Positions 27,931 through 60,734 of a stretch of 64,000 bases of DNA are shown piece by piece (position 1 is the stretch's first letter; the number at the start of each line of letters is the position of its first letter). Source of the DNA: Centroscyllium fabricii (Eukaryota); NCBI GenBank assembly GCA_051313645.2, contig JBNRSN020000017.1:52824001-52888000 (forward strand), read 5' to 3'. Both the position numbers and the translations under genes were made by a program. A model generated the notes under the pieces. It was not told the origin of the DNA. It made no database searches and saw nothing but the letters and a program-made list of their open reading frames with translations.

Positions 27931-28306
27931 GATAGCAAAATACCGCGGATGCTGGAAATCCGAAATAACAACAGAAAACGCTGGAAAAACTCAGCAGGCC
28001 AGGCAGCATCGGTGGAGAGAGAAACAGAGAGTTAACGTTTCAGGTCGATGACCTTTCTTCAGAACTGGAGAGGGGATAGATTTGTAAGCTGGTGGGGGCT
28101 GGGGAAAGGGGGAGGGGCTGAAAGAACAAAGGGAAGGTCAGCGACCAGCTAGAAGGCAGCGGAGATAAAGAGACATTGAGAGACATTAAGAGAAATTCAA
28201 GGAACACAGGATAGCTCTAAAGGTGTGAACGGCTCTGGCAGAAAAAAAGAGAAAAGCCCAGACGAAAGTATGGGAGATATATATATATAAAAATGTGATC
28301 GGAGTC
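27931..28306 (-). mobile_element. Penelope-like element pseudo-LTR (family B)
   Basis: Same sequence as the pLTR at 44667-45076, which is attached to a GIY-YIG C-terminal remnant. Confidence 0.8.
28030..28066 (-). ncRNA. Minimal type I hammerhead ribozyme motif
   Basis: AGUU-CUGAAGA-A-AGGUC-AUC-GACCU-GAAA-CG-UU-AACU. Confidence 0.8.
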
Positions 28307-28660
28307 GAGACATGCTCTTTTGGTCCTGTTATACTGCTCTCTGGTGGTATAATTTGGCTTTGATGTTTGAATCTGTGCAGTCAGCTGCATGGTAGGAATC
28401 TTAGTTGGATGGTTATTTTTGTGGACAGAAGTCTTAGTGCTAGACATGGGCAACTGATTTATTCACAAAAGTTGGAAGCAGCACATGCTGGCAGAAAAGT
28501 TTTGGATTGGTTTACAATATGGGAAGATGGGATTGGTAGACTAAACAGGGACATAAAATGTGGGGGAGATACTGTGACCATCCTTAGCTCATGCTGGCAT
28601 AAAATTGAACGGCATTTTTAAACTGCAATCTCTTTGATAGGCACAGATCAGCATAAATAT

Positions 28661-29379
28661 ATTGGCCCAGAAATTCGGGTTGGAGGCTTCCCACGAGTGC
28701 AAGCTTCCAACCTGCACTTACCTAGCGCGCCGGCCGTTGAGCTGTGGGCCCGCATGGAATTCCGACGCGGGGCCTTCCTGAACTGCTGGCGCGCCGCGCT
28801 CCCGGATCCCAGCGGCGAAGATAGTGCGAGGGATCGCGCTGGATCACGTGGGCCACGGAGAGCACAGAATGCTCCATTCATAAGTTTGATAGGAAGACCT
28901 GTCAAACTTATGAATACTACAACCCCAAAACCTCAGTAAATTTTCAAATACATTTTTTAAAAACATCAATTTTTTAAAAATAACTATCAATTACATAAAT
29001 TAGCTATTGTAAACAAATATTTAAAATTTTGAAAAAAATAATTACATGTTTTTAATGGGGCTAAAAATAAACAACCTGTGGAAAAAAAAATTAAAATTGA
29101 ATTAATTCACCACTTACCCTCTGAAAAGGGGTCTTTGCGCATGAAAATAGGAGCTGTATCTTTCTCCATACTTACCCGCACACAGACCTGTAAAAAAAAA
29201 ATCGAAGTCCATTGCGCTGCCGCGCACGCGTTCCGACCCCTGACCCCTTCTGTCAGGGGATCGGAAGTGCCGGTTTTGCGCACATGCGCTGTGCATGCAT
29301 GAAACCGGCACTTCGGATGGGCGTACGGATGAGTACCCAGCGCGTACACGCGCATTGGGAACGGAATTTCTGGGCCAAT
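28661..29379. mobile_element. Harbinger-like MITE
   Basis: TIRs ATTGGCCCAGAAATTC / GAATTTCTGGGCCAAT, subterminal hairpins, AT-rich centre; sibling copy at 38318-39053. Confidence 0.75.
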
Positions 29380-31619
29380 GCATTGATATATATTGGAAGT
29401 TGTAATTTGCTGGGGGGGTAGGTGTCGGTTTTGGCGCCAACTTAACTGAAGCACACTTATAATCATGTGATTGTACATTCAGTGTGGCAAGTGTTGATGT
29501 GCCATTAACTTGTATTAAATATTTACTTTGCAGCTAACATGGGTTTAGATATTTGTGTGACTCCACGTGAAAACAATTACACCTCATAACAAAATTGAGT
29601 TTTCTTGCAGGGTTACACATTCAGGTTCATCAAATCCGTGGATTATTAACCAGAGATCAACCTGTGTCAGAGATGTTAATCTCTTACTTTAAGAAACACA
29701 ATACCAAAGAATTCTTTAAAATGTTAAAATGATCCATCGAGAACCAAACATTTGAAGACACAGAAAAGATCCTGAAGTGCATCCTTTTGAATGATTCACA
29801 CTCATGGTCCTCCAAATGGTGAATTATTAATATAATCGTGTTATTATGGAGCAGAGTTAAGTGAAGATCAAAGGCTTCCTCGCAGAGAATGAGAAAACAA
29901 AAAAAAAATGTCACCAAGGGCCCTTCAGTCACAACTTCTGGTCTGTTATGGTGAAGCATGGACCGAGTCCAAGGAACATGGTTGGCTTTAGAGCCTTGCT
30001 GTGACATGGGGATATTTAAGAAGGAAAGAGAAGAAAAATGCCTCTTAAAAATTAATTAATTAAATTGCCTGAAACTTTCTGATATTTTCAAATTGACTCA
30101 GCATAGTTTGCTCTAAGAGCTTTGACACATTTGTTGTGCCCTAAAAATGCTTGGTTGGTGCTGCCTGTACCTACCCTCGTAAATGTTCTGTTCAAGTGGA
30201 GCCCAAGGAATATAATACAAGAGTGTCAATTTTGTATTATGCAAGGCTAACTGTAAATAGAGATAATTAAATAATTACACTTTAACGAGGTGCAAATGGC
30301 TTATTGAATTGCCTGAAATAGCTGACCCGCTGTAAGTGGTGCCTTTCTAATTGACGGCAAGTACGGTAGTTATGGGAAATTGCGTGCTCTGTGACATTCT
30401 GTCCAACTCCGATTCAGTATTCAGTTGGCTTGAAATAAGAGGATATTTTAGTTTTTAGTTTCTTTCTCTGTGAATACATTTTTATTTAAACCACATTATT
30501 TGTTTTCTGTTGGCAACGAGACTACTTTTATTTTAAACAACAACAGAAAATGCTGGAAACACTCAGCAGGCCAGGGTATTGTACTTTTACTTTCATGTGT
30601 GTTGTAAAATGGAGCCCGCTTTAGTTTTTGATCTTTTCTAATGAGCTGTTGTCTGTTGTTTTGCATCGAATAAAAGATCGAGTGGGAAGGTGTTAGAAGC
30701 AATGAAGGCGTTCAACTATATTGGTGAACTAACTCTATAAAGTTGTAAGAACCCTACAATGGTGGCACAATTTTTTATTTGATGTAACATCGACCTGAAT
30801 GACTGTTTCTGGTGATGTAAGTGGGCGTGCTGTGTGTTGAGCGCACCATTATGTGTCAATGGGCAGATTTACTTGTTTCGCTGGTCAATGTGACATTTCG
30901 TATCAATGGGTAGGAAGAGAATATTTTAGAGGGAGTTTTTGCACGATACAAATTGAAGAACAACACTACACTGCAAGCTTTGGTACCTGAGAAGGATTTA
31001 TGCTGTGGTTCAATCTTTGACTGTAAACTTAACTTATGGACTTCATGCTGTTGCCAGAACCTCCTTGAAAAACAGCCATACATCTTTGTCAAGTCTTCAT
31101 TATTTATCATTTTTATAGCAGGGAATCTAAGCGTAAATTGATGAGTAAAAATAGTAGGAAAGGTTTGTATGGCAGTAAAAAAAAATGACAAAACCACTCC
31201 ACAGACTTTGAGGGTTGCTTTGGAAATGAGCATTACCAGGGAAGAGTTGGAAGGCGCTAGACTGAACAGAAATGGTTTGGAGGAACGAGAGAGAAGCTAA
31301 AATTTAATAAAAAGTTGACATTTTACTGTTGGGTGTAATCAGTTGTGGTAATTGACTGAAAGGCAGCCAGGACTTCATGCCTGGTGCTGGCGTTTTCTCA
31401 AGCAGATTACAGAATTCTATCCCTCGAATATGTAAAATAAAGAATAATAGATGGCTGGTATGCATTATGTGGCGAATAAATATTGAGTAGGCTTTAACCT
31501 GTTTGTGAAGTTCAATGACTTCATAAACTGAGAGAACAAAACATTACTTCCAACCAGCAGTATTTTAGCTGGTATTTCCCATCCCTTTCCTGGACTTGGG
31601 TTTCCCTGCACAAACTCTC

Positions 31620-31890
31620 AGGCAGTCCCTCGGAACCAAGGCTGTCTTGCTTCCACATTAAAAATGAGTTCTCAGGTGACTGATGAGCCCAATGCGAGCC
31701 ATGAGGGTCCTGATGTTCCAGGTCCCGAACTTCATTTTAAAGGGTGGAAGATGCCTGTGCGTGAATTCTTTTAACGTGGGGTGGCCGTTGCACACCAGCC
31801 ACCACACGGGCTTGACAGAGCAAGGTCTTGGTCCAATGGCAAGGGGATCCAAGACGATTGGAGACCAGGCTCTGCTGCAACGGCCTAGCA
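31620..31890 (-). mobile_element. Internally deleted (bipartite) RTE LINE derivative
   Basis: Mini-ORF 31658-31735 MKFGTWNIRTLM|ARIGLISHLRTHF* joins the APE endonuclease start to the RTE C-terminal zinc-finger end, followed by an RTE-type 3' UTR. Confidence 0.75.
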
Positions 31891-32074
31891 CACACACACA
31901 AACATAATGCTACTGTCCCCCTCCCTCCTTCCCGCAGATCCTCGCTGCCTGGGTTTCGTAGGATGCATTGTGGTCCTCCTGACCTCGCTGTTGCCCGTGC
32001 CGCACCTTCCCTGGGCCCCGACCCGGCTGCTGGTCCACGCGGAGTGGAGCTCGGAGCCAGGGATCATGAGAGTA

Positions 32075-32203
32075 TCAACCAGCATCACTGAAAAACAGAT
32101 TATCTGGTCATGATCACATGGCTGTTTGTGGGAGCTTGCTGTGCGCAACTTGGCTGCCGCATTTCCTACGGTACAACAGTGACTATGCTTCAAAAGTACT
32201 TTA
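32075..32203 (+). mobile_element. DeuSINE (SacSINE/AmnSINE-related) fragment
   Basis: cagattatctggtcatgatcacatggctgtttgtgggagcttgctgtgcgc...acagtgactatgcttcaaaagtac matches the Deu-domain region as recalled. Confidence 0.7.
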
Positions 32204-33478
32204 ATGAAATTTCTTTCTCTTTTTCTTTAAAGACATTTCTCCTGAATTTCTCACAAAGCACCTTTGCTAACTGAGGGTTGGCAGATGAGTTGTTCCTAGG
32301 TCTCTACCAATTCATTCTGAAATCACTGTGAGGGACAATGCAAGGGCAGCATGTGTAACGAGCATTGTATGAGTGATGTGGCTACAGAGGAGAAGGCGGT
32401 TTGTATTGGAGAATAATGACTACAAAATATAGGAAAAAATAGTGTATGTTCTAGACTTGACAAAGATGTATTTTGTTAAATAAAATAGTGACTTCATACG
32501 CCGTACACATAGTTATGCTTAAAATAATGTTACAAACCAGTCCACCCTTCATTTATGCTGTACCGCTAAAGTGCCTCATCTGTTGTCGTCCTGTTGCTGG
32601 TTTGATCCACCAACAGTCGCTCTTTGTTTGCTGGGCATACGGCATGGGTGAGCTGTAATTCAATTGTTCTCCCTCATTGAACCCTTACTCCCATTGATAA
32701 CCTATACAGCTTGTACTTTCAATGCCAGTGCTATTTGTTTTCTGCAGATTTTGTCCCCTTTGGCTGTTTTGCTTATCAGCAGACTGGCTGCGGGTCACAA
32801 AATAACCAAACCGGGGTGTAAAAGACAGTTCCTCCGGTCACCTTTCTGTTTTTGGTAGCCATTCTCGCACATTCACTCTCTGTTTGTGTGCAGCCAACCC
32901 ATTGCTTCCACCATTGTCTTCCATCTTTTCAGTCTGCAAGTTTATTTAGAAAGACCAGGTGTGCCTTTATTTTCATCTGCTTTTTTTTGTCTTTTTCAGA
33001 GGAATGACAAGTTTGTGTAACATTTAGATTTTTGCCTGCATGTTTGAACGCCTGCCTTTTAAATACTTAAAAGAGCCACCCCTTTGCCAGCACCTTTTTT
33101 GTAGTTTGGCACAGATGTAAGTGCCGTCACTTCATCGACGTGCACATTGGTTCACCTGTGTAAAAATAGAAATCAGGCAAATGTGAAACATTTTGTGGAG
33201 ATCGTGTGAATTGTAATTTGGGTTTTTCATTTTTGCTCTCCATTTTTGTTTAAATTCCCAGGGGGGGGTTTCCATATTTTGAAAAACTCCTGCTGGAAGT
33301 TGAGGGGGTGGGAGAGGGGGATGAGCATTATATTTTCTAGCAGAGAATTGGGGAGAAAATTCGGCAAACCCTTTGCACATTTATTCATTTTGTCTATTTT
33401 TATTGGCTATGTAGCATTTTTGTTTTTTTCTCGTTTTTTTTTTCTTTTGTTGTATCAATATTGTTATAGGCGGTGGTG

Positions 33479-33620
33479 GAAGCGGAGACACTCAATGTTT
33501 TCAAGGGGAGACTGGATAGACACTTGAGGGAAATAAACTTGCAGGGCTACAGGGATAGAGCGGGGGAATGGGACTGACTGGGTTGCTCTACAGCGAGCCG
33601 GCACGGACTGGATGGGCCTA
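33479..33620 (+). mobile_element. Short CR1 3' fragment
   Basis: FKGRLDRHLREINLQGYRDRAGEWD* plus tail. Confidence 0.75.
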
Positions 33621-33954
33621 TGTTTCATAGTGTAGAGAGGGGCAAGAGAAAACTATACAGACCATAGCAGACATTATCTCCGTATCTAACTGAGAGGCAC
33701 GCAGAATCAAATCCAACAGATTCTTTTTCCCCATTGATATTTTATAAAGTTTGTACTTTCAATGCCACTGTGGCTTGTTTCCTACATGTTTCCCCCTTTG
33801 GCATTCTTATTCATCTGTGGGTTAACTGTGGATCACAAAGTAACCAAACCGAGGCATGAAAGATCAGTTGATCCCTTCACTGTGTGTCTCGGGTAGCCAT
33901 TCTTGCATTGTGTCTCCGTTTTATGGACAGCATTGCTGACTCCCTCACATGAAA

Positions 33955-34593
33955 AAGACGTGTTCAGTCGAGGAACACTTCAGCAGTCAAGGACATTCAG
34001 CTGCTGATCTTCGGGTAAGCATTCTCCAAGGCGGCCTTCGAGACACACGACAGCGCAAAATCGTCGAGCAGAAACTGATAGCCAAGTTCTGCACTCATGA
34101 GGACGGCCTCAACCGGGATCTTGTCTTCATGTCACGCTACATGTGACCCCACCTGACGTAGAGTCATCCAGACTCGAGTCGTCTTTGGCTTGTTCTCACT
34201 AAAAAAAAATTTTTTTTTTTTCTAATTGTTCTGTTTTGGTTTTTCACACAGACCCCAGCATGTGCAACATTTGACCCTTTGTGACTCCACCTCATTGTTC
34301 TTCGGGTGGTGTCTGCTTGACTAATCTGTTTAAACACCATTCACACCTTTGATTGCTATGAATGTCTCTCTGCCGAGGTGTGATGAAGGGCAGTTTCAAA
34401 GATTTCCTGTAATCATCCAGCATTGTTCTCCGACTATATATGCTGTGTTTGTGTGCATCTCTCCACTTCACCTGATGAAGGAGCAACGCTCCGAAAGCTT
34501 GTGATTTCAAATAAAACGGTTGGACTATAACCTGGGGTTGTGTGACTTCTTGAATTTGTCCACCCCAGTCCAACACCGGCACCTCCACATCAT
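33955..34593 (+). mobile_element. Penelope-like element 3' end (GIY-YIG endonuclease C-terminus plus pLTR, family A)
   Basis: ORF 33949-34146 VEEHFSSQGHSAADLRVSILQGG...EQKLIAKFCTHEDGLNRD is typical of the PLE GIY-YIG C-terminus; hammerhead and AATAAA downstream. Confidence 0.85.
34468..34504 (+). ncRNA. Minimal type I hammerhead ribozyme motif
   Basis: UCAC-CUGAUGA-A-GGAGC-AAC-GCUCC-GAAA-GC-UU-GUGA. Confidence 0.8.
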
Positions 34594-34728
34594 TCAAAGA
34601 AGGTATCATGATGGTGGCCTACCAACAGCTGGTTGCAATGACTGCAGTTTGCTTTTGATGCTTCCACTGTCCTCAGTGGGGTTTTTAAAATACATTTAGT
34701 CACATGTAAATGTACATTTCTGTTGATG

Positions 34729-35096
34729 CAGCGGTCCCCAACCTTTTTTGGACCACGGACCATTTTGAGCTAGACAATTTTTTCACGGGGCGGGGGGGTG
34801 CTGGCGGGGTTCTTTTCACTGACCGGGGGGGGGTGCTGGCGGAGTTTTTTTCACTGAGCGGGGGGGGGGGGGTGCTGGCGAGGGTTTTTTGACAGGCCGG
34901 GGGGGGTGCTGCTGCCGAGGGTTTTTGGACCTGGCGGGGGGGTGCTGCGGCGGGCGGCGAACATTCCTTCTGCCGCTGCGGCCCGGGGCGGAGGGAGCTG
35001 GGGTGCGGGCGGCGAACATTCCTTCTGCCGCTGCGGCCCGGTAAAAATGTTCCACGGCCCGATACCGGGCCGCGGCCCAGCGGTTGGGGACCCCTG
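34729..35096. mobile_element. hAT (Charlie-like) MITE, G-tract rich
   Basis: TIRs CAGCGGTCCCCAACC / GGTTGGGGACCCCTG; perfect 8-bp TSD TGTTGATG (34721-34728, 35097-35104). Confidence 0.92.
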
Positions 35097-35994
35097 TGTT
35101 GATGTATATTAATTCTCCTTGAATTTTCGAATTTTGTTCTTTTTAGTGACACTCTAAAGATTCACATCACAAAATTATGTAAAGTTAATTTGCTGATGAA
35201 ACGTATTCCCTACATGCAAAATATTATAACTTGAGTGTCAATATTTATAAATGTCTCAAATTCCTAAAATATGTTTGCACAATTCCAGAACAATAGTAAA
35301 TAGAAATCTTTGCATAAATAATGGTTTAATGACATCGTAGATTTTAACACAAACAGGCAAAGATGTAATTAAATCTTCCCGGTTTATAATGCAAGTATAT
35401 CTGCAAATGACATCATTGCATGGTTTGTTGCTCTCAATCTTGCAATGTTCATTTTGCACAACTTGAAAATATCTCATTTGATTGCTTTGCCCTGTTACCC
35501 AAATTTATTATGTTTATGACAGACTGTCAAGAGGGAGCCACTGAAAAGAACAAAAGTTATAAATTGGAGGTTATTGTGACTGGAGTTTGAACATGCCGAA
35601 GGAAACAATTTATTGTATAATGGAAACCATCTTTTTAGTTGCTATCATTAATGTTCCTGGCATGAAATGGTTGGCTTTAAAATGTATTTACAACTTAATT
35701 TGAGTTTCTAAGTCAATTTGTGTAGTCTTTTAGTCAAAGGCTTGTTTATATGCTTTTATGTAAAATTGGAAATTAGTTTACAGATTACAGCAACAGCACA
35801 ATGAACTCATCCAACTGTTTTACGAGCCCTTCTTTAACAGCCATTAAGGGGTGATGATTACTGTGGGGTGCATTAAGTGTTGGTGCTTTTCCTATAGTTT
35901 GCATTCAGTGTTGGTGCTTTTTTAATTGTAAGATGACATTTTCTGTTGAATATGTGTAGTCATTGTAAATGAGTGATATTTTCTTTTATTGTAG

Positions 35995-36062
35995 GCATGC
36001 TGGTGGTTATTGTATTGCTGCTGATTGCCATTGTTGTGGTTGCTGTCTGGCCAACAAGCTAA
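35995..36062 (+). CDS. STX8: Syntaxin-8, last coding exon (C-terminal transmembrane anchor)
   Basis: Acceptor ttttcttttattgtAG then (G)MLVVIVLLLIAIVVVAVWPTS*, matching the vertebrate STX8 C-terminus (human ...GMIMVILLLLVAIVVVAVWPTN); convergent neighbour of NTN1. Confidence 0.9.
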
Positions 36063-36592
36063 TGAGGCAAGTCTAGCACAAAACCACTCTCTTCGGTGAA
36101 TATGGACTGGATGCTAAAACTGAAAAGTGAGCAACACGTTCTTCCTGAGATCGCTGGGACAAGATTCAAATAAGTATCCCCAATCAAGCAATAGAATATG
36201 TTTTAATGTGTTTGATATGCTGTTCTGCTATTATCTAGTTCTCGTGAAAAACTGGATTAATCAAGGCCAAAACAAAACTCATTTATTTCATTTCTTTTCT
36301 TCCAGTAAGATTTCCATTCCTGATTTAATTTTCTGCCTTAAATTCAGAAACAATGGTTGTAACTCCTGAGTGGCTGGGGTAATGCAGCATCTATCTAAGG
36401 GCTGTAACTAATGGCTTCTAATTATCTTACAGTTTTGGAGCACTTGCCTCTCTCAAAGTTCCTCAATCTGCATGTATATATGTTTTTCTCTTTACAAAGA
36501 TTTAGGAACACTTCAAATGTCAGTACTTTACACTTCGTTTCCCTTGCCGAAACTAAACCATTGTATTTACATTAAATGCTGAGAAATATTTA

Positions 36593-36598
36593 AATAAA
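36593..36598 (+). promoter_or_regulatory. STX8: Candidate STX8 polyadenylation signal (alternative AATAAA at 37100-37105)
   Basis: AATAAA in repeat-free AT-rich sequence downstream of the stop; the 37100 site is followed by a GT/T-rich tract. Confidence 0.45.
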
Positions 36599-38317
36599 AT
36601 AAATTACATTTTAAACATGTTCTAAACAATGAGCTAATAGCATGCTTAAAGCTGTTTTACATTGTTTTGTTACTTTGTTCTCCCATTCTGTTTGCAGTAT
36701 TTCTGATTATAATTTTATTCTTGTTTAAATGAGCTGGACGTGACCATTTAAAATGCTCAAACTATCTTGTTAACGAAGGCAGTTTCTAGTCACTCACACG
36801 ATTACTCTGTTTTCCCAGGGAAAATGCTTTTCTCAGTGCTTGCGGGGTCAGTGAAGGGGCTCTCGGTAGGGCACAGGGAGTGTGTGCTATCTCACTGCCT
36901 GTAAACAGTGTTACTGTTCACACGCCTTCATGAAATTGAAACTTGGAACAAATTGCTTTCAGTGTGGAAATTCCAATCTAACAGAACTGTAATTCCAAAC
37001 CAATTCCCTACAATTTGGTGCCGTTATGTACTTCACTTACATTGTTACTTATTCAATTTTTATAAGCATTTAGTAAAAGTATTCAAAATATGGTATATAA
37101 ATAAATATTTTCCAACTCGTTTTTACACTGTGTCTTTTATGTGAAGTTGTTAAACTTTCTTGGCCATAATATGCAAATTCAAAATTTGCAGAACACCAGT
37201 TTTAACTCTTCAGGTTAAAATTCTCATTTTCTTTGTGTGCATTGTAAAAGACAGAAGTTTATCACTGTGTTGCTAAAGATACTGGGACCACCCATTTATC
37301 TGTCTGTAGTTTGTCCTTAGGTTCTGGCTAAGATGCATCATTTTTGTCAAAATTCTACATAACTCCCTCTCTTCAAAGCTCAAAATGCTTGAAGGACAAA
37401 GCAAACTAAAAAAAAACAGTTTTCACGGTTTTAGAGGTTACAGTCTTGCACCGAGAATGTAAGGTGGTCTCAGAAATGTGGCCCATCTGTTTACCTATTT
37501 AACTGCTTTCAAGAAAAAATAACAGAAGAGCAACTAACCTCTGTGGTCTGATTGAGACTCTGCTCCCAGCACACACACACACACCTCTGATCTGGGCTTT
37601 TTAAAATTAAAGTGGGAAAAAACTTCCTTGCTAAATACAATGAGATAGGAACAATGGTTGGTCAAGTAAATTTTAAATAAGGACAAGGCAGCTTGATTAA
37701 ATCAGTTCAATTATACACCACTTGGCCTCAGTCACAGCAAGTCCATGTGGTTAATTTTAATTTGCTTGTTGGCTTTTCTGTTGTTATATTACAGATGCAA
37801 GTGTATTTATTTACAGGAATTGCATAAAGTCAACAATAAGTTCAGTCATAAAAAGGAAACTGAATCATTGTATTTTCCTTTCTCACGCTGCGCCAATCTT
37901 GCCACCATCACTAAACTGGGGTCACTGTTTGACCATTCTTCATGTTGGAACATTTTGAGGAATTTCTCTAGATGGTGAATAGTTTAGTGGTTACATGGGT
38001 GGCTTTTTAAGCATGTAAGAGCTCTTGTCTGCTGGCATTAGGTGGGAAGCATGCATCTGTTCAATCATTTGAGATCTATTAGAAGTTTAACTGAAAATAT
38101 TGTGCACACACTTAACACTATTTTCCTGCCCATTATCATATTGAAATTTTCTCAAAATGGAGTATCTAAAACAACCTGCTGTTGTTTTAGATACTCCAAA
38201 ATGGACTTTAAAAAAATTAAAATAAACATTGTGTCTGTTTGAGTATGGCAATTGCCCTCTTGTGAGGCTAAATTATATCATCACCAAACAATTCCTGAAA
38301 ATTAATTTTCATTGTTA

Positions 38318-44303: not shown

Positions 44304-44632
44304 TTATGCCTTCTTGCACTTGCCTTTCTTCTCCCTCTGTTGGAACTTTCGCAGCCTCCTTGCCCACGTGTCCCTCCATTGTATCACCAAACTGGTTTTG
44401 TTTGCTACAACCCCATTCTGGTCAGGAGAGTCCTCGTCGTTCCCTAAGAGCAGGTACTTCTTCCCCGTTTTGACTTTTGGGCATTTGCAGGCTACATCCT
44501 TTGAGCGGACCCACAGGAATTGGTCGCCACGCCGTATCCGTTTTACCCCTTGTTTGTACACCGAGATGATATTCACTGTAAACTTCCACCATTCACCGGC
44601 CTTCTCTGCCTTCAAGATGTGGGCTTGAACAG
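44304..44632 (-). CDS. NTN1: Netrin-1, last coding exon (NTR/C345C domain)
   Basis: Acceptor ttcttcgttattgcAG then (A)[28 protein letters not shown]...[24 protein letters not shown], near-identical to the vertebrate netrin-1 C-terminus. Confidence 0.96.
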
Positions 44633-44666
44633 CTGCAATAACGAAGAAAGGAACAGAAGAATATTT

Positions 44667-45076
44667 AATAACAACAACAGAAAACGCTGGAGAAACTCAG
44701 CAGGCCAGGCAGCATCGGTGGAGAGAGAAACTGAGTTGACGTTTCAGGTCGATGACCTTTCCTCAGAACTGGAGAAGCCAGGAGGGGCGGGGGAGGGGGG
44801 GTGTGCTGAAAGAACAAAGGAAAGATCAACAGGCTAGAAGGCGGGGAAGGTAAGAGATATTGGGAGAAATTGAAGGAACACAGTATGGCTCTGAATAGGT
44901 GTCAATGGCTATGGCAGAGTAAAGAAAAAAGCCCATACGAAAGTGGATTGAAAAAAGAGTGAAAATATATATGTATAAAAAAGTGGTAGGGGCCGAGGTT
45001 ATGATCTAAAATTGTTGAACTCTATGTTTAGTCTAGAGGGCTGTAGAGTGCCTAAGCGAAAGATGAGGTGCTGTTT
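44667..45076 (-). mobile_element. Penelope-like element 3' end (family B)
   Basis: Minus strand QHLIFRLGTLQPSRLNIEFNNFRS* (GIY-YIG C-terminus) followed by a pLTR with hammerhead. Confidence 0.85.
44734..44770 (-). ncRNA. Minimal type I hammerhead ribozyme motif with canonical GUC site
   Basis: AGUU-CUGAGGA-A-AGGUC-AUC-GACCU-GAAA-CG-UC-AACU; all stems pair. Confidence 0.85.
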
Positions 45077-49633: not shown

Positions 49634-49662
49634 TACAAACTTTCATAGCGCCCTCGATGTCT

Positions 49663-49758
49663 CACACCTGAGGAAGGAGCAGTGCTCGGAAAGCTTGTGA
49701 TTTCAAATAAAACTGTTGGACTATAACCTGGTGTTGTGTGACTTCTTGCATTTGTCCA
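49663..49758 (+). mobile_element. PLE family A pLTR fragment with hammerhead motif (49665-49699; one stem II mismatch)
   Basis: CAC-CUGAGGA-A-GGAGC-AGU-GCUCG-GAAA-GC-UU-GUG; downstream matches 34505-34560. Confidence 0.8.
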
Positions 49759-49930: not shown

Positions 49931-50657
49931 ATGGAAGAAAACCAAGGAGATCATAGTGGACTTCCGGAGGACTGGAAGCAGAAGACACACCCCCATCTTC
50001 ATCCAAGGGGCTGAGGTGGAAAGGGTGTCCAGCTTCAAGTTCCTCGGGGTCCACATCTCGGAAGATCTCTCCTGGTCACTAAACACCTCCTCTCTGGTTA
50101 AGAAGGCCCAACAGCGCCTGTACTTCCAAAGGAAGCTGAAGAAAGCCAGGCTGTCATCCGGCATCCTCTCCAACTTCTACCGCTGCACAATAGAAAGCAT
50201 ACTGACAAGCTGCATCATTGTCTGGTATGGAAATTGCACTATCTCGGACCGGAAAACCCTGCAGCGGGTAGTCGAAACTGCCCAACGAATTACCGGTACA
50301 CAGCTACCGTCAATGGAAAGCATCTACCTCAAACGCTGCTTACGGAGGTCTATGAACATTATTAAAGACCCCACACACCCCAGCCACAGTCTGTTCGCCC
50401 CCCTGCCCTCCGGGAGACGCTACAGAGCAATTTGCACCCGCACGACTAGATTTCAGAACAGCTTCTTCCCCAGGGCTGTCAGACTCCTGAACTCTAAAAA
50501 GAAACTCCGGTACCTGCACGCCTGATAATGTACTTTACTGTATGCAATTTGCATGTAATTTATTTGCACTACTCTCGGGAGAGTCGAGTCTTCGTCTCGT
50601 TGTATTGTACTAGTACTCTGCAATGACAATAAAACTTGAATTGAATTGAATTGAATT
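49931..50657 (+). mobile_element. Rex1/Babar LINE 3' fragment
   Basis: ORF 49956-50525 VERVSSFKFLGVHISEDLSW...KKAQQRLYF...NFYRCTIESILT; AATAAA and (TTGAA)n tail. Confidence 0.9.
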
Positions 50658-50697
50658 GTGAACTGAACTACAAAAGCGCTAAATAGAAAAGCACTTT

Positions 50698-51101
50698 ACA
50701 TAGAAACATAGAAACTAGGAGCAGGAGTAGGCCATTCGGCCCTTCGAGCCTGCTCCGCCATTCAATGAGATCATGGCTGATCATCCAAACCCAGTACCCC
50801 GCCCCTGCCCTCTCCCCACATCCCTCGATTCCTATCGAGCCTGCACCGACACATATCCCACCCTATCCCCGTAACCCCACATATTCAATCACCCTAACAC
50901 TAAGGGTCAATTTATCATGGCCAATCAACCTAACCTGCACATCTTTGGACTGTGGGAGGAAACCGGAGCACCCGGAGGAAACCCACGCAGACACGGGGAG
51001 AATGTGCAAACTCCACACAGATAGTACCCGAGGCTGGATTTGAACCCGGGTCTCCAGTGCTGTGAGACAACAATGCTAACCGCTGTGCTACCGTGCCGCC
51101 C
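50698..51101 (-). mobile_element. Full-length HE1-type V-SINE
   Basis: Reverse complement of the 17846-18247 element. Confidence 0.92.
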
Positions 51102-52137
51102 TATGTAGAGCAGCTCATTGCTGTACTGACAATCTGCATGAAGGTACTTCAGATCCAGCATCTCTAATAAAACAGCTCTGAAAATGCAAAGCTGGGTATT
51201 TCCACCTGGGATCCAGCAAAAAGTGGAAGGCAATTCAATCAGTGCTGCTCTTAATTAGCTTCTAATGGGTGAACACAGAGAACAAACAGTGGAGGCTGAG
51301 GAGCAACTCACTTGACCGCTCTCTTGACCAGCTCATGCCTGTGGTATAGGGGGACTTGACAGGAGCACAAAATCAGAGAGATATATAAGTCATTAAAAAT
51401 GCTAAAACAGTGATAACACAGAGGAAAGCAGCAGACCTAGCAGTAGATTGCTGAAGTCCTGACCTATAGAGTCACAAATTTGAGTCGCAGCCTTAATTGG
51501 GATTGAACGTCATCTGTTCTCAGTGCAGGGATTTCACTGGTTTTCAGCCAGGTCACAGCAGCAGCCTGCTTGACCTCAGCAGGGAAGATTTGACCTTGTG
51601 CACTTCCTACCAGCTGATCACCGAGCGATATCAATGGCAGTGATGCACGGGTGTGTGACCCAGAGAGTCCCTTGCTCATGACAGAAAGAAGGATAATAAC
51701 AGCACAGGGGAGGATATATTTAACATATAAATTCTAAAACCTTTGATTCCTGAGGGGTGATGGTGCTTTGAGATGAAAATAAGCTAAAACTGGACCAGGG
51801 AAAAGAGGATGTGAAGTATGAATGAGGTAGACAAAGCTTGTTAAAAGGACAAGAATAGTACTGTACAGTAACATATAAACAAACAGCACTGTTTTACTGA
51901 GGATGTCCTATATTTCCACTGTGTCGTATCCAACCTGTATTGTGTGTTAATTAATGTACTTTTCCTGTTATGTTAATAAAGTCAATACAAAAAGGAGTCC
52001 GTCTAATGTGAGTGTGTTTCTGAGTACTTTCCCCAGTGTTATAATAGGAAATATGTGTATTACAAAATCAGACAGCTATCAGTTATATCACCAATGTTCC
52101 GATATGTGCATTTGCAATGGTTCTATATACAGGTTGA

Positions 52138-52839
52138 CAGTGTTGGCCGTGAGCGCGCTAAATGAGCGCGCGTTCACGAACGCGTTCACATTTACGTGAA
52201 CGCCGAACGAGTGGCTCTTTCCCGACAGCGTGAGCGAAAATCTGAGCGCCGCTCTGTTTGGAGTGAGTGAGCGGCGCTCTCCCAGGTATGTGACGCCGAA
52301 CGCATGCGCAGATCGTCTCCCAGGTATGTGACGCTGAACGCATGCGCAGATCGTCTCCCAGGTATGTGACGCCGAACGCATGCGCAGATCGTCTCCCAGC
52401 GACACGAGTCCTGAAGCCATCGGGACGGGAGCGGTGAGTGCTTTGCTTTGCGCTTAGCTTTTGCTTTTGCTTTTGCTTTTGGTTTTGGGTTTTGGCTTTG
52501 GGTTTTTGGCTTTTGGTTTTGCTTTTGCTTTTTGGCTTTTGCTTTTGGCTTTGGTTTTTGGCTTTGGCTTCAGCTTCTATTATTCTTTAATGGGCTGTAG
52601 CAATGATTGGGGGCTGTCAGTGGATGGATAAGAGGATGTTCTATTGAAAAATAATAGCTCGGGGCAGCGCATTAAAAGAAAAGAAAAAAAAAAACGAACT
52701 TTGAACTAGTTCATTTTTGAGCTGCGAACTTAAGTTCAAAATTCAAAATTATGAACTATGAACTTGAACTAGTTCATTTTAAAATGATTGAACTGAACTT
52801 TGAGCTAGCTCTTGTTACGTGTGAACTTTCCCAACACTG
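52138..52839. mobile_element. hAT non-autonomous element
   Basis: TIRs CAGTGTTGG / CCAACACTG; perfect 8-bp TSD CAGGTTGA (52130-52137, 52840-52847); GAACTAGTTC subterminal repeats. Confidence 0.88.
52278..52399 (+). repeat. 38-bp tandem repeat, about 3.2 copies, followed by (TTTTGC/TTTGG)n at ~52440-52570
   Basis: Unit TCTCCCAGGTATGTGACGCCGAACGCATGCGCAGATCG. Confidence 0.9.
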
Positions 52840-52997
52840 CAGGTTGAACACCGTTTATCCGGTAACCAAAAAGCCGGCAACTTCAGTCGTCCGGCATAAA
52901 CCGCCCCGACTGCTATGCGCATGTGCAAAATGGCCGCCGCAATCGATGCTTTGGCGAATGAGCTGCGCATGCGCTGCCGAATGGCGGGAGCATGCGC

Positions 52998-54970
52998 AGA
53001 CCTGAAGATTGGGAGCAGTTCAGGATACAGCAAAGGAGGACAAAGAGATTAATCAGGAGGGGGAAAATAGATTACGAAAGTAAGCTTGCGGCAAACATAA
53101 AAAACGACTGCAAAAGCTTTTATAGGTATATCAGGAGGAAAAGATTGGTAAAATCCCAAGTCGGTCCCTTGCGGTCTGATTCAGGGGAATATATAATGGG
53201 GAATAAGGAAATGGCAGACCAATTAAATTCATATTTTGGTTCTGTCTGCACAAAGGAGGACACAAATAACCTCCCTGGGATATCGGGAAACATGGGGACT
53301 AATGCAAGGGAGGAGCTGACAGAAATCAGTATTTCTAAGGATATGGTGTTGGGGAAGTTGAAGGGATTGAAGGCCGACAAATCCCCAGGGCCTGATAATC
53401 TACATCCTAGGCTACTTAAGGAGGTGGCCCTGGAGATAGTAGATGCCTTAATGATCATTTTCAGGAACTCGATAGACTCGGGAACAGTACCCACGGATTG
53501 GAGGGTAGCAAATGTTACCCCACTGTTTAAAAAGGGGGGTAGAGAATCAGCAGGGAATTATAGACCAGTAAGCCTTACATCAGTAGTAGGCAAAATGCTA
53601 GAGTCCATTATTAAGGATGTAATAGCGGAGCACTTGACAAATAGGGATGGGATCGGACAGAGTCAACATGGATTTACAAAAGGTAAATCGTGCTTGACTA
53701 ATCTATTGGAATTCTTTGAGGAAGTAACTGGTAAAATGGATGGGGGAGAGCCAGTAGATGTGGTGTACCTTGACTTCCAGAAAGCCTTCGATAAGGTCCC
53801 ACATAAAAGATTAGCATGCAAAATCAAGGCTCATGGGATTGGGGGCAAAGTACTGACGTGGATAGAGAACTGGCTGGCTGATAGAAAACAGAGAGTTGGA
53901 ATAAACGGCTCGTTTTCTGAGTGGCAGGTGGTGACTAGTGGGGTGCCGCAGGGATCTGTCCTGGGACCCCAGCTGTTCACAATATATATTAATGATCTGG
54001 ACCAGGGAATTGGATGCAACATCTCCAAATTTGCAGACGACACTAAACTAGGAGGGGGGGTGGGCTCTGATGTCAGGAAGCTCCAGTGCGATTTGGACAA
54101 GTTGGGGGAATGGGCGGATACATGGCAAATGCACTATAATGTGGATAAATGGGAGGTTATCCACTTTGGGGGCAAAAACAGGAGGGCAGATTATTATTTA
54201 AATGGCAATAGATTGGGAGATGGGGAAGTGCAGAGAGACCTGGGTGTTCTTGTGCACCAGTCACTGAGGGCGAGCATGCAGGTGCAACAGGTGGTTAAGA
54301 AGGCAAATAGTATGTTGGCCTTCATATCAAGAGGGTTCGAGTATAGGAATAAAGATACCTTACTACAGCAGTACAAGGCACTGGTGAGACCACACCTTGA
54401 GTATTGTGTACAGTTTTGGTCACCTCATCTGAGGAAGGATGTTCTTGCCATGGAAGGAGTGCAGCGGCGATTCACCAGGCTGATACCTGGAATGGCAGGA
54501 ATGACCTACAAGGAGAGATTGTGTAGTTTGGGCTTGTACTCGCTGGAGTTTAGAAGATTGAGAGGAGATCTCATAGAAACATATAAAATTCTGACAGGCC
54601 TGGACAGGTTAAATTCAGAAATAATGTTTCCAATGGTGGGGGAGTCCAGAACCAGGGGCCACAGTCTAAGGATAAGGGGTAAACCATTTAGGACAAATAT
54701 GAGGAAGAATTTCTTCACCCAGAGAGTGGTGAGCCTGTGGAATTCCTTGCCATAGAGGGCAGTGGAGGCCAGTTCATTAAATATATTTAAGAGGGAATTG
54801 GATACATTTCTTCAGGCTAAAGGGATTAAGGGTTACGGAGAGAAGGCGGGGACAGGGTACTTAACTTGAAAGATCAGCCAAAGATCAGCCATGATCTCAT
54901 TAAATGGCGGAGCGGGCTTGAAGGGCCGAATGGCCTACTCCTGCTCCTATCTTCTATGTTTCTATGTTTC
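52998..54970 (+). mobile_element. 5'-truncated CR1 LINE, same subfamily as 1-2157
   Basis: ORF 52992-54755 has a full RT motif set; premature stop near the C-terminus; (TTTCTATG)n tail. Confidence 0.95.
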
Positions 54971-55678
54971 TAAAACTTCATGGCGGCCATTCCCAATGGT
55001 AAGAATCTGCCGCTCACTCCGGCCTCACTCCTTCAGCGCTGCCCAGGACCGGGCTCCGACTGCTAACTCTCCCTCGCCAACCATTCTCGAATTCGGTTCT
55101 CTCGTGTTGTTAGTGCTGTGTTGGGCCTGCAGCCTGGGCCTCGATTTATGGTTGTAGGTGGGGTGGAGGGGAGAGTCCCATCCTGTCTGCCTGGTGCGCC
55201 GAGCCGAGGGATCTTTGCACGGCGGGTTCTGGGCCGCGGGTTGTTTTTGTCCCCACTAACCGGGTGATGTGAACTCTGGCTCCCTGTGCGTTTATTGTAA
55301 CTCATTACAGGGACTCCACGGGTTTGCTTTTTGAATTGGTGCAGTAGCTGCCGTTTACCATAATGTATGGACTCAGGCTGCAGCTACACTGCAGGTGATC
55401 AAAACTTCCGGCGGCCATTTCCAATGGTGTGCGCATGCGTGCGGCCATTTTGAATGGTGTGCGCATGCGCACTGGCCGGCTTCATTCTTCCAGTTTTTTC
55501 GCTATCCCAGCGCGGGCCTAATCCCGCCCGTGCCGGTATAACGGTGTTCAACCTGTAATATAATATTAATCCAAGATTGAGTCATTTTGGAAAGGCAAAG
55601 ATATAGCAATGTGTTCATTTAGATTTGGACAATGGATCAGCTGCATGGTGACTATTGAAGAACCAGACAAATCAGTAC

Positions 55679-55967
55679 TGATGCGCAAATCAATCACGCC
55701 AGTCGTTGGTGAAAAGTAATTGAAGGCTTTTATTCACAAAGAACAGAACCTAGTCTGCAATGAGTCCGCCCGGAATGAGAGCCAGGTGGGCGGAGCATTC
55801 TCCTTTATACCCATACCCAGAGGCGGGGTCAGCCGGTCCAGGTCCTTACAGAAAGGCACAGATTTATCAACACAAACTATATACAATGATCCAGAAAGAC
55901 ACAGACATACCAACCCAACTATATACAACAATAGCACAGTGTGAACCACACCAAATGGTTCATCACA
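55679..55967 (-). mobile_element. Solo LTR (Gypsy-like)
   Basis: TG...CA ends, perfect 5-bp TSD AGTAC (55674-55678, 55968-55972), minus-strand TATAAA (~55809) upstream of AATAAA (~55734). Confidence 0.85.
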
Positions 55968-56737
55968 AGTACATTCTGACGTTATACTGCCAATTTGATA
56001 CTGAATCTATGCTTGTTTAATCTAACATTTCACACAGCAGGTGAGTTTTGTTTTAAAGGCCAATCTACAACATTTCAATCTTTCCCTGCTTTATTGTTTC
56101 AGACTATAACCATTCTACATAAATATTGAAACCAAAGTTGTTACTATTCACACCAATATGCATTACTTTGAATTTACGAAGTAAATTAAGGTCCAGAACT
56201 GAAGTTCCAATGGTTAAAAATTCCCACGGGATCCTAAGGGATAATTTAAAAATACGTTCACAGAGATTCTCTCCTTTGTCACTCTCTAGTTGGAGAGTGT
56301 AATCCTTACCTGGAATGTCCTATTTACATTCAAAAATTATAACTGATTAATTGTACCTTCCAGGCAGTTCAGTTTATTTTGAGTCAAGTTATTTTCTTAC
56401 CTGCTTTCCACCCATGTATAGTTTGTTTTTCAGTTAAAATTGCCATCGTCAGTCACTGCCACGTAGTTTCAAATCAATTGCCTGAGAAGATTATGATTAC
56501 CCCAAACCCTAACCCAGTTATTAATGAAACCCTTTCCTTGCTTTTCTGTATCATTGTCTCAACCACTTGTTGAGAATCATTCTCAGTCAAGCAGATTAAT
56601 ACCACTTTCGGCTCCCTATCATGAAACTATTTTACTGTCATTTTAAAAATGCCTTTCAATACAACCATTGTATCCAAATATAACAGGTCATCCAGTGTTT
56701 CCCCTACCTCTTTTAAAAGCAATTACTTTTTGCCATA

Positions 56738-56850
56738 ATGTAAGAAGTCACACAACACCAGGTTATAGTCCAACAGTTTTATTTGAAATCACAAGCTTTC
56801 AGAGCACTGCTCCTTCGTCAGGTGAAGTGAAGAGATTCATAAAGGCACAT
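56738..56850 (-). mobile_element. PLE family A pLTR fragment with hammerhead motif at 56789-56825
   Basis: UCAC-CUGACGA-A-GGAGC-AGU-GCUCU-GAAA-GC-UU-GUGA. Confidence 0.8.
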
Positions 56851-57104
56851 TTTTGCCCTAATAAACACAAATTGTTTTAATTCTCCGTATGTGTTCCTTA
56901 TGCTTCCTGCACATTACCTACCGCCGATCTAGATCCTATGCCACTTTCATTTTACTTGATTTCTCAGTATCCTGAGTTGCTTCCTCAACTCCTGGCTCCA
57001 TTCTCACTGACTTTATCATTCTCAGCCCAGTTACACCCCTTTTTATCTGATCGTGGTGACTATTGTCTTTATTCCTCCAGACCAATCTTGTTGCCCATCT
57101 TGTA

Positions 57105-57825
57105 TGATAGCAAAATACTGCAGATGCTGGAAATCCGAAATAACAACAGAAAATGCTGGAAAACCTCAGCAGGCCAGGCAGCATCGGTGAAGAGATATAG
57201 AGTCGATGTTTCGGGTTAGGACCCTTTGTCAAGAGTAAAGCCAGGAAATGAAACAGGTAGGAAGGCCGGGGGAGCTGGGAGGGAACAAAAGGGAAGAGAG
57301 AAAAAAAAAGGCCAAATAAAAGATCCCACTCTGATCTCTCATGTCCTTGGCCTATTACAGTGTTCCTCGGAAGCTCAGCGTAAACTCGAGGAACAACACC
57401 ACATCTTCCGATTAGGCACTTCACAGTCCTTCGGACTCAATATCGAATTCAACAATTTCAGATCATAACTTTGCCCCCTATTATATTTTTACCTATTTTT
57501 ATCCACACCTTTCATTTGGCCTTTTCTCTCTCGTGGCAGCCGCCTCCCATTCTGCCAGTGCTTTTCACACCTAATCTATAGCTGTCTCCTGTCCACAGCC
57601 CCGTCAGCATATCGTCTCATTTTGAATACCTCTTCATCTCTTTTCACTTTGGCTCTCTCTTCTCTTGTTTTTTCTTCCCTTTTGTTCCCTCCCAGCTCCC
57701 ACGGCCTTCCTACCGGTTTCATTTCCTGGCTTTAGTCTTGACAAAGGGTCCTAACCCGAAACGTCAACTCTATATTTCTCTCCACGGATGTTGCCTGGCC
57801 TGCTGAGATTTTCCAGCATTTTCTG
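57105..57825 (+). mobile_element. PLE (family C): inverted pLTR, GIY-YIG C-terminus and direct pLTR; hammerhead variants at 57201-57236 (-) and 57734-57769 (+)
   Basis: ORF 57226-57468 ends RKLEEQHHIFRLGTSQSFGLNIEFNNFRS*; 17-bp TSD TTGTTGCCCATCTTGTA (57088-57104, 57826-57842). Confidence 0.88.
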
Positions 57826-58009
57826 TTGTTGCCCATCTTGTAGTCTTTTCTCCTACCCTATGTGCTTTTCCACTCGGACATGCCTTGTATGTTCTTTCAA
57901 TTTCTCTAAATAACTCTCCATTTAATTGTTTGGTCAGTCCCAGTGAGTAACAATCTGGCGTATTAAAAAAACTTCTTTAATCTTTCTGTGTACACCAGCC
58001 ATTAAAGTA

Positions 58010-59091
58010 GGAAAACTCTCCATTGGTTGGAATCATACCTAGCACAAAGGAAGTTGGCTGTGGTTGTTGGAGGTCATTCATCTCAACCACAGGACATCAC
58101 TGCAGGAGTTCCTCAGGGCAGTGTCCTAGGCCCAACCATCTTCAGCTGTTTCATCAATGACCTTCCCTCCATCATAAGGTCAGAAGTGGGGATGTTCACT
58201 GATGATTGCACACTGTTCAGCACCATTCGAGACTCGTCAGATACTGACACAGTCCGTGTCCATATACAGCAAGACCTGGACAACATTCAGACTTGGGCTG
58301 ACAAGTGGCAAGTAACATTCGCACCACACAAGTGCCAGGCAATGACCATCTCCAACAAGCGAGACTCTAACCATCTCCCCATGACATTCAATGGCATTAT
58401 CATCGCTGAATCCCCCACTATCAACATCCTGGGGGTTACCATTGATCGGAAACTGAACTGGACCAGCCATATAAATACTGTGGCTACAAGAGCAGGCCAG
58501 AGGCTGGGAATTCTGCGGCGAGTGTCTCACCTCCTGACACCCCAAAGCCTTTCCACCATCTACAAGGCACAAGTCAGGAGTGTGATGGAATACTCTCCAC
58601 TTGCCTGGATGAGTGCAGCTCCAACAACACTCAAGAAGCTCGACACCATTCAGGATAAAGCAGGCCGCTTGATTGGCACTCCATCCACAACCTTCAACAT
58701 TCACTCCCTCCACCACCGGCGCACTGTGGCTGCAGTGTGTACCATCTACAAGATGCACTGCAGCAACTCGCCAAAGCTCCTTCAACAGCACCTTCCAAAC
58801 CCACGACCTCTACCACTTAGAAGGACAAGGGCAGCAGACGCATGGGAACAGCACCACCTACAAGTTCCCTTCCAAGCCACACACCATCCTGACTTGGACC
58901 TGTATCGCCGCTCCTTCACTGTCGCTGGGCCAAAATCCTAACAACATTGTGGGTGTACCTACACCATATGGACTGCAGCGGTTCAAGAAGGCGGCTCACC
59001 ACCATCTTCTCAAGGGCAGTTAGGGATGGACACTAAATGCAGGCCTAGCCAGCCAGCAACGCCCACATCCCATCAATGAATTTTAAAAAAA
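58010..59091 (+). mobile_element. Second, shorter copy of the 22668-25291 LINE
   Basis: ORF 58027-58941 is nearly identical to 24241-25224; same tail. Confidence 0.92.
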
Positions 59092-59361
59092 GGTTGGAAT
59101 AACGTTCTGGTTCTTAAGGAAAAGTTATCTTGTGGTTTACAAAGCCACTTTTCCTGAAGAACCAAAAAACTGTTTAGGAGTACTTTTGCCCACTTTAGCT
59201 ATTACGATTGCTCTCTATAGTTCCCCATTCATCCACAGCTGACAGCATGGGGTCCTGCTCATATGCCTCTGTCAGTGCTGCTCGGAGGTCAACTGTTGTA
59301 AGTTTGTGAATGGCCCAGGATGACTCCCTGTAGGGAAGCAATTAAAGCCTCCTCCCAGTGA

Positions 59362-59579
59362 TGATGTGGAGTTGCCAGTGTTGGACTGGGGTGGACAATT
59401 GTAAGAAGTCACACAATACCAGGTTAAAGTCCAACAGTTTTATTTGAAATCACAAGCTTTCGGGGCGTAGCTCCTTCATCAGGTTTATACACCTGATGAA
59501 GGAGCTACGCTCCGAAAGCTTGTAATTTCAAATAAAACTGTTGGACGATAACCTGGTGTTGTGTGACTTCTTACAATTG
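59362..59579. mobile_element. Fold-back pair of PLE family A pLTR ends with hammerheads at ~59451-59485 (-) and ~59490-59524 (+)
   Basis: Inverted repeat centred near 59487; 12-bp direct repeat TCCTCCCAGTGA (59350-59361, 59580-59591). Confidence 0.85.
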
Positions 59580-59739
59580 TCCTCCCAGTGACACTGCTAA
59601 GACCAGAAACTGAGCATGTAGAGAATTGCAAGTTGGACTTGTATCTCATCACTTCCTCACGCAAGATTGGTGCTCTGACCTGTCATGTCACCACCATGCA
59701 GACCAATTATTTTCTTACAGTAAGCGGCAGCTAACAGAA

Positions 59740-60243
59740 TAGAAACATAGAAGATAGGAGCAGGAGTAGGCCATTCGGCCCCTCGAGCCTGCTCCGCCAT
59801 TCAATGAGATCATGGCTGATCATCCAAACCAAGTACCCTGTCCCTGCCTTCTCTCCATATCCCTTGATCCCTCTAGCCTTAAGAAATACATCGAACCCCT
59901 TCTTGAATATATTCAATGAACTAGCCTCCACCGCCCTCTGTGGCAGAGAATTCCACAGGTTCACCACTCTCTGGGTGAAGAAATTCCTCCTCATCTCTGT
60001 CCTAAATGAGTTACCCCTTATCCTTAGACTATGACCCCTGGTTCTGGACTCTCCGATCATCGGGAACATTTTTCCTGCATCAAGTTTGTCCAGTCCTGTT
60101 AGAAATTTATACGTTTCGATGAGATCCCCTCTCAATCTTCTAAACTCCAGAGAGTACAAACCCAGTCTACCCAGTCACTCCTCATACGTCATTCCTGCCA
60201 TCCCAGGTATCAGCCTGGTGAATCTTCTCTGCACTCCCTCCAT
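59740..60243 (-). mobile_element. CR1 3' fragment, near-identical to the end of 1-2157
   Basis: ORF 59731-60159 matches the C-terminus of ORF 353-2071. Confidence 0.92.
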
Positions 60244-60397
60244 GTCAGGTGTTGGCAATTGATTTTGCAATGATTCAGGCAGAGCGATTTTCCCTCATCC
60301 CGTTCAAACCTTCATACAGAGGGGTTGTCTCTCTCTATCTGCTTAACTCTTGCTGATTCTTAATTTACATCTAAAATCAACAGTAGACTTTTTATCA

Positions 60398-60734
60398 GAA
60401 AACGCTGGAAAAACTCAGCAGGCCAGGCAGCATCGGTGGAGAGAGGAACAGAGTTAACGTTTCAGGTCGATGACCTTTCCTCAGAACTGAAGAAACCAGG
60501 AGGAGGGGAATAGATTTTAAAGCTAGTAGGGGCTGGGGAAAGGGGGAGGGGCTTACCCCAGCCCCCACCAGCTTTCAAATCTATCCCCTCTCCTGGTTTC
60601 TCCAGTTCTGAAGAAAGGTCATCGACCTGAAACGTTAACTCTGTTCCTCTCTCCACCGATGCTGCCTGGCCTGCTGAGTTTCTCCAGCGTTTTCTGTTAG
60701 TTTGGAGTTCCAGCATCCGCAGTATTTTGCTATC
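60398..60734. mobile_element. Fold-back pair of PLE family B pLTRs with hammerheads at 60452-60488 (-) and 60604-60640 (+)
   Basis: Inverted repeat centred near 60548; flanking direct repeat GTAGACTTTT(T)ATCA (60383-60397, 60735-60748). Confidence 0.85.

Follow-up and report, generated by a model that had tools for sequence, protein, structure and literature searches.

Minimal hammerhead ribozymes in truncated Penelope-like elements of the shark Centroscyllium fabricii, probably inert where they lie

Minimal type I hammerhead ribozymes (min-HHRs) of metazoan Penelope-like elements (PLEs) were described in 2014; in the portions of that paper compared here, they are inactive as monomers and weak as dimers in vitro, and number about 4,000 in the coelacanth and about 9,000 in Xenopus (Cervera and de la Pena 2014, PMC4209133). 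Other partly consulted sources give 126,247 canonical hammerhead motifs for the axolotl (PMC7229834) and, in the anole, a PLE ribozyme that cuts only with protein, is dispensable for insertion, coincides with no RNA-seq ends at its cut site and lies upstream of the point where reverse transcription starts (PMC11167929). The window analysed here – a stretch of 64,000 nucleotides from Centroscyllium fabricii (assembly GCA_051313645.2, contig JBNRSN020000017.1, positions 52,824,001 to 52,888,000) that includes parts of the host genes STX8 and NTN1 – holds 11 motifs which are new members of this known kind. Very probably they are minimal type I hammerheads in the 3' pseudo-long terminal repeat (pLTR) ends of truncated PLEs of Neptune type, and we infer that they are likely to be inert leftovers in place.

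Named by position C3, the motifs lie at 28062(-), 34472(+), 44766(-), 49668(+), 56821(-), 57232(-), 57738(+), 59482(-), 59493(+), 60484(-) and 60608(+), in spans that run from stem I to stem I', and fall into three sequence variants, here called A, B and C. An earlier note on this DNA had listed all eleven by the low ends of their spans, and each was found in its place. A strict descriptor – core, stem II, two-nucleotide spacer and stem I – recovers nine of them, compared with a mean of 0.25 and a maximum of 2 in 60 dinucleotide shuffles; the two that escape it have a stem I of just 2 bp. Every copy has the catalytic core, (C/U)UGAN(G/A)A ... GAAA ... UH with a 3-8 pair, and an extra A after A9 (between positions 9 and 10.1). 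The earlier note had described a CUGANGA core, a paired stem II and a palindromic stem III (AGCU or ACGU) in all copies, which is true of most: the core reads so in nine, with a C-G 3-8 pair, but 57232 and 57738 read UUGACAA, with U3-A8; the palindrome A15.1-15.2-16.2-U16.1, without helix III, is present in ten of the eleven but lost in 57232; and stem II pairs fully except for one broken pair each in 49668 and 59482. Stem I comprises 4 bp in six copies, three pairs of four in three and 2 bp in two. The pair that closes helix II (10.1-11.1) is G-C in five and G-U in one of the A and C copies and broken in another, while A-U replaces G10.1-C11.1 in all four B copies of the window and in 42 of 55 sampled B/C copies. 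The count of eleven stands, but the motifs belong to eight insertions, and only six (28062, 34472, 44766, 56821, 60484 and 60608) are intact, the other five having a broken stem or palindrome.

When the eleven rows are aligned, 90% of the cells pair, compared with 22-39% in slid controls, and eight of the ten stem pairs are altered on both sides across families; as the rows form three related groups, this covariation is between families and does not amount to eleven independent events. The invariant columns are the catalytic positions and a few in stem II. An Rfam search of the window returned no hammerhead model up to E=10.

Two of the intact copies are A-type solos, at 34468-34504(+), with H17 at 34500, and at 56789-56825(-), with a G-U closing pair. 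An intact B-type copy at 28030-28066(-), with H17 at 28034, sits in a solo 3' fragment (~27937-28273), and another at 44734-44770(-), with H17 at 44738, in an insertion (~44670-45075, minus strand) with a 9-bp flanking repeat. The A-type copy at 49664-49700(+) has a broken stem II closing pair and is 5'-truncated at stem I. The remaining six motifs sit in three tail-out inverted pairs spanning both strands, all flanked by target duplications: a C-type pair at 57106-57830 (17 bp), with U3-A8 hammerheads at 57201-57236(-) and 57734-57769(+); an A-type pair at 59366-59586 (12 bp), whose hammerheads at 59450-59486(-) and 59489-59525(+) both have just 2 bp of stem I; and a B-type pair at 60396-60734 (at least 10 bp), with both hammerheads, 60452-60488(-) and 60604-60640(+), intact. 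A B/C tail fragment without ribozyme lies at 30535-30575(-).

The origin of the motifs in PLEs, as the earlier note had it, is borne out by what adjoins them. Elsewhere in the genome, family A motifs adjoin frames that combine the end of a reverse transcriptase (RT) with a CX4CxxC linker and a GIY-YIG domain; these frames are 88% identical to P0121, and related proteins carry PF00078 and PF01541. The best match of a family A frame is a shark protein. B and C motifs adjoin remnants of PLE RT and endonuclease at loci L008, L011 and L012. In the window itself, the three GIY-YIG C-terminal remnants of the earlier note are present and match these elements: one of a family A PLE at 33964-34143(+), with 66% identity to residues 822-880 of P0122, one of the B/C lineage at 44990-45075(-), and one inside the C-type pair at 57323-57465(+). 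Where three PLE families had been proposed, there are indeed three ribozyme variants, but only two PLE lineages, since B and C have a 3' tail and an endonuclease end in common. A CX2-5CxxC linker with a C-terminal GIY-YIG domain bearing a CCHH motif is found in the family A frames L004 and L005 and in the C-lineage remnants L011 and L012; this combination defines the Neptune clade and is common to Nematis, according to the sections of PMC8557442 drawn on here, and the linker suggests an affiliation with Neptune (or Nematis). Pfam has no family for two short remnants or for two longer PLE frames. Among 20 loci examined, none has a complete open reading frame flanked by two direct pLTRs; L001, a candidate full-length element, turned out to be two separate insertions. 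A further U3-A8 variant lies at L011:5826(-), 240 nt from a C-type copy, and pieces of the family A frame occur inside the annotated shark proteins P0128, P0131, P0134 and P0137 (XRCC5, PPP1R12A-like and USP8 isoforms), as exonisation or as an annotation artefact.

Exact family cores occur 77,347 (A), 11,585 (B) and 1,833 (C) times in the genome, with no match to the reversed controls. A general core pattern, which makes no demand on the stems and would count any haplotype duplicates of the assembly, gives 253,506 matches compared with 2,495 for its control, or 35 per Mb in a genome of 7.21 Gb; about 95 of the first 100 matches listed belong, by eye, to these families. The genome-wide number thus bears out the very high ribozyme density claimed by the earlier note, but the window overstates it: there is one motif per 3 kb here and one core per 28 kb in the genome, and the general pattern matches 10 times in the window where 2.25 are expected. 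The window is a local density peak; in the 664 kb around it there are 42 matches compared with 23 expected, all 42 in the first 400 kb. The ~250,000 cores are twice the axolotl figure in print – although the published counts rest on different descriptors and are not strictly comparable – and such a copy number gives enough statistical power for testing, through strand bias in introns and cyclic-phosphate ends, if host transcripts are cut by PLE hammerheads.

To follow the fate of single copies, we gathered them by flank anchors outside the ribozyme, excluding the 20 loci picked for perfect cores; 107 of 120 aligned A rows (149 flank-anchored copies) and 55 of 77 B/C rows (114 anchored) were kept. 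Variants shared among the A copies occupy none of 1,175 cells in the core and 104 of 427 in N7 and loop II, and the sole stem II variant, found in 22 copies, keeps pairing (A-U to G-U). Private changes, in turn, fall on core and flank alike, at 2.1% and 2.8% in A (p=0.23) and at 4.3% and 3.6% in B/C (p=0.45). An apparent excess of core changes in B/C (p=0.0006) was spurious, arising from truncated and split copies in a laxer alignment. With no shared variants in the core and private changes equal in core and flank, the ribozyme pattern is kept in transposing lineages and not after insertion, when it decays neutrally; the core conservation that the earlier note expected relative to the flank thus exists between subfamilies, but not in single copies.

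A mechanism consistent with these patterns can be outlined. Selection would keep the motif in transposing master elements alone, where, as a strand-swapped dimer joined through the 4-nt palindrome, it would cleave tandem transcripts of the element itself, probably with the aid of the element's protein. With reverse transcription starting on the 3' side of the ribozyme, truncated copies would nearly all retain it, often twice as a tail-out inversion; and as almost all truncated copies carry one or two, the number of ribozymes is high. Inserted copies would then decay neutrally, and host pre-mRNA would rarely be cut, since inverted pairs in an intron transcript may fold back on themselves.

Such pairs are common: 25 tail-out pairs take up 50 of the 76 pLTR copies in the 664 kb around the window, and neighbours within 3.5 kb are tail-out in 31 cases and same-strand in 10. 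Truncated and inverted copies are the usual PLE footprint, as stated in the parts of PMC8557442 consulted. The three window pairs are predicted to make long hairpins that lock the ribozyme, with folding energies of -164 to -388 kcal/mol, whereas the dimer interface yields -3 to -4. In 600 nt of context, the predicted probability of stem I does not exceed 0.21 in any of the 11 motifs, and that of stem II is 0.00 for the four motifs of the two tight pairs; the C pair, which is wider, is predicted to form stem II (0.81-0.95) but not stem I. Whichever strand is read, the antisense arm of a tail-out pair is transcribed first. In several tight pairs the inversion breakpoint falls inside the ribozyme (loci among L032, L023, L042, L073, L089 and L210).

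As the earlier note had proposed, the host genes are STX8 and NTN1, coding exons of both having been identified in the window and beyond. STX8, on the plus strand, ends its coding sequence at 36062 with an exon for the membrane anchor (35995-36062); the preceding exon (L073:5249-5350) is found ~25 kb before the window begins, and the last intron holds 34472 in sense and 28062 in antisense orientation. NTN1, on the minus strand, has coding exons spread over 520 kb. Its last, encoding the NTR domain (44304-44632, acceptor AG at 44634-44633), has a chimaera protein as its best match, and the next exon upstream is 25 kb outside the window. The last NTN1 intron holds nine motifs (44766 onward), of which five – among them 44766 and 56821 – are sense, and 49668 is antisense. 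The B-type insertion around 44766 stops 37 nt before the acceptor (44633-44670), its pyrimidine-rich tail abutting the polypyrimidine tract. Within the first coding intron of NTN1, some 260 kb (G000:C678:53,127,000-53,385,000; L044-L070) are nearly free of pLTR copies and of CR1 in an otherwise repeat-dense genome, and are possibly a constrained regulatory region; a depletion specific to the ribozyme is ruled out by the near absence of CR1.

Intact sense copies might, on a different reading, cut host pre-mRNA by forming trans dimers with PLE or other intronic transcripts, assisted by PLE protein, and so alter the splicing or level of NTN1 or STX8; the candidate site is 44766, which the last NTN1 exon follows after 105 nt. 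The pool of compatible partners is vast, comprising the exact A and B cores counted above, protein-assisted cleavage is known for one PLE (in the parts of PMC11167929 compared), and family sequence occurs in contigs from presumed RNA runs, all of them from other organisms. Nonetheless, we consider this improbable: the interface is just 4-6 bp, the predicted stem II probability of 44766 in context is 0.06, inserted copies show no excess conservation of the core, and strand bias is not significant, with 6 sense and 12 antisense solo copies in NTN1 (p=0.24) and four of each over the 136 kb that precede the end of STX8, only the last 60 kb of which are shown to belong to it. A different proposal, made in the earlier note, is pairing in cis, with several copies of a single pre-mRNA joining as active double hammerheads. 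The portion of the last NTN1 intron inside the window does have five sense copies, and two pairs among them, 56821/59482 and 44766/60484, have compatible palindromes. Yet neighbouring copies mostly lie on opposite strands, A and B/C palindromes are incompatible, and these sole same-strand partners are separated by 2.7 and 15.7 kb, one member of each pair being locked in a hairpin: 59482 and 60484 are both preceded by their antisense arm in the transcript and have a stem II probability of 0.00; in 59482, moreover, stem I is missing and stem II broken. The window's part of STX8 has just one sense copy. We find no support for the proposal in either gene and regard it as very improbable.

Least probable of all, and scarcely credible to us, is that the motif is no working ribozyme even in active elements, but a look-alike conserved as a signal for protein binding or reverse transcription. 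The weak in vitro activity of metazoan min-HHRs (PMC4209133, in part), the dispensability of the anole ribozyme for insertion in vitro (PMC11167929, likewise) and the missing G10.1-C11.1 pair of family B would all suit such a signal, but it is precisely the catalytic positions that are fixed, while N7, loop II and H17 (U/C) vary in a pattern of hammerhead chemistry; C3-G8 covaries to U3-A8 (C-G in 32 and U-A in 11 of the 55 B/C copies); and the anole element shows mutational rescue in the sections of PMC11167929 used here. The reading preferred here, that of inert leftovers of working ribozymes, has points against it as well. Three intact solo copies lie on the sense strand (34472, 44766 and 56821), and core, palindrome and stems are still kept in 67 of 107 A copies. 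Shared variants are also few in the flank (one of 25 columns in A), so that the core contrasts more sharply with N7 and loop II than with the flank. The skew of NTN1 solos runs in the direction expected if sense copies are harmful, and CR1 in NTN1 leans likewise (18.4 kb sense, 25.1 kb antisense). Finally, equilibrium folding takes no account of co-transcriptional order or proteins.

Some B-type copies elsewhere in the genome have met another fate. Among the B/C-anchored copies, 13 of 114 are interrupted by a transposon end exactly at the cleavage triplet, as against none of the 149 A copies; none of the eleven window motifs is split. Genome-wide, a junction pattern finds 3,709 transposon junctions and 28,507 uninterrupted B-type copies (11.5%). 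Among the first 30 junction loci listed, 24 have both ribozyme halves around the insert and a duplicated triplet (the 5' half being altered in one), the left transposon end is missing from one, and five have no 5' half within 9 kb; these figures come from manual reading over several searches, as a loose search alone gave false left ends. Examples are L221, L225, L242, L250 and L253-L256. B copies that start at the palindrome are therefore not cleavage-made 5' ends, as the 5' half of the ribozyme lies beyond the inserted transposon. A second site with ends of miniature inverted-repeat transposable elements (MITEs) lies 3' of a C-type ribozyme (L032).

Ten complete inserts form five similarity groups, and two have longer partners that share their terminal inverted repeats (TIRs) around a DDE_Tnp_4 transposase: L282 (78-6770, 6.7 kb), with the TIR of the L221 insert and 76-81% subterminal identity, and L293 (3224-8013, 4.8 kb). 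Both bracket PF13359 and are long PHIS/Harbinger-group elements with AWT duplications. The search for such partners covered 12 loci and gave two clear cases and one weaker; a TIR pair in L292 proved to be the end of an unrelated repeat. This genome holds 72,583 first-look candidates for PF13359, whereas no such elements are reported from the elephant shark (PMC9179366). Like the PHIS transposons and MITEs of the PIF/Harbinger group, these have short TIRs, a 3-bp duplication and DDE_Tnp_4 in longer partners, but the duplication elsewhere in the genome is AWT, resembling the ANT of the Pangu group, and not the TWA of PIF/Harbinger in the strict sense (PMC4482050).

The hot spot is explained in part by ordinary target preference: a matrix built from 38 half-sites predicts 5-9% occupancy of the B site if its triplet were AWT, near the observed value. 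However, 19 of the 24 loci retain a G in at least one triplet copy, and because such targets make up only 4.4% of ends elsewhere, a several-fold to twenty-fold gap is left on this crude model. That several Harbinger-type families single out the B-type cleavage triplet beyond plain sequence preference, splitting about one copy in nine at a site whose first base departs from the usual AWT, is a tentative idea that we think rather unlikely; the methylated CpG palindrome of stem III is one example of what could steer them, at thousands of loci. A general mimicry of T by methyl-C finds no support, since one MITE family has 1,281 AWC-R ends as against 28,789 AWT-R ends; 26 of the first 100 AWC-R matches listed are CpG, by eye. 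The duplicated triplet copies often differ in one direction: 6 of 24 loci have A in the left copy and G in the right, and 2 the opposite. Strand-specific loss of methyl-C during gap filling may be the cause. A literature search found no report of transposons concentrated at a ribozyme cut site. The hot spot marks thousands of dated ribozyme knock-outs and, for transposases of the Harbinger group, is a natural target of great strength.

Apart from these elements, the window contains long frames resembling the RT of long interspersed nuclear elements (185-2071, 6217-7938, 22821-25224, 52962-54755 and 58006-58941), two stretches of 97% identity (24216-24515 and 58029-58328), a 5S rRNA-like fragment below the Rfam threshold (19423-19466, minus strand), a tandem array based on 5 nt (15924-16253) and a perfect direct duplication of 557 bp (5330-6186).

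Our literature search, made on main texts, found no paper on shark PLE hammerheads, and supplements may list shark counts; a 2026 retrozyme preprint covers one chondrichthyan (bioRxiv 10.64898/2026.07.22.740005, in the parts consulted). As far as the sections compared of this preprint and of PMC7229834 go, non-LTR retrozymes resemble the present system in their type I hammerheads, their very high copy number and their link to PLEs, but they are head-to-tail tandem repeats, each unit with a hammerhead, that give circular RNAs, whereas the present copies are scattered, either as solos or as inverted pairs of the tail-out type. The anole Poseidon element PAc (Frangieh et al. 2024, PMC11167929, in part) is alike in having a minimal type I motif near the junction of pLTR and open reading frame, upstream of the reverse-transcription start that sets the 3' end and tail; the present elements differ in their Neptune-type CX4CxxC linker. 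Closest are the metazoan PLE min-HHRs, which, in the main-text parts of Cervera and de la Pena 2014 (PMC4209133) compared, likewise have a core without helix III, an extra nucleotide between 9 and 10.1, a palindromic 15.2-16.2, a 4-bp helix I and a U3-A8 variant, and occur in mostly truncated elements, in opposite-strand pairs a few hundred bases apart and in several consensus families per genome. The differences from those parts of that paper lie in the host, sharks being unnamed there; in helix II, which here has 4-5 bp and in family B closes with A-U; and in number, with some 250,000 cores, by a pattern without stems, compared with the ~4,000 and ~9,000 that its own descriptor gave.

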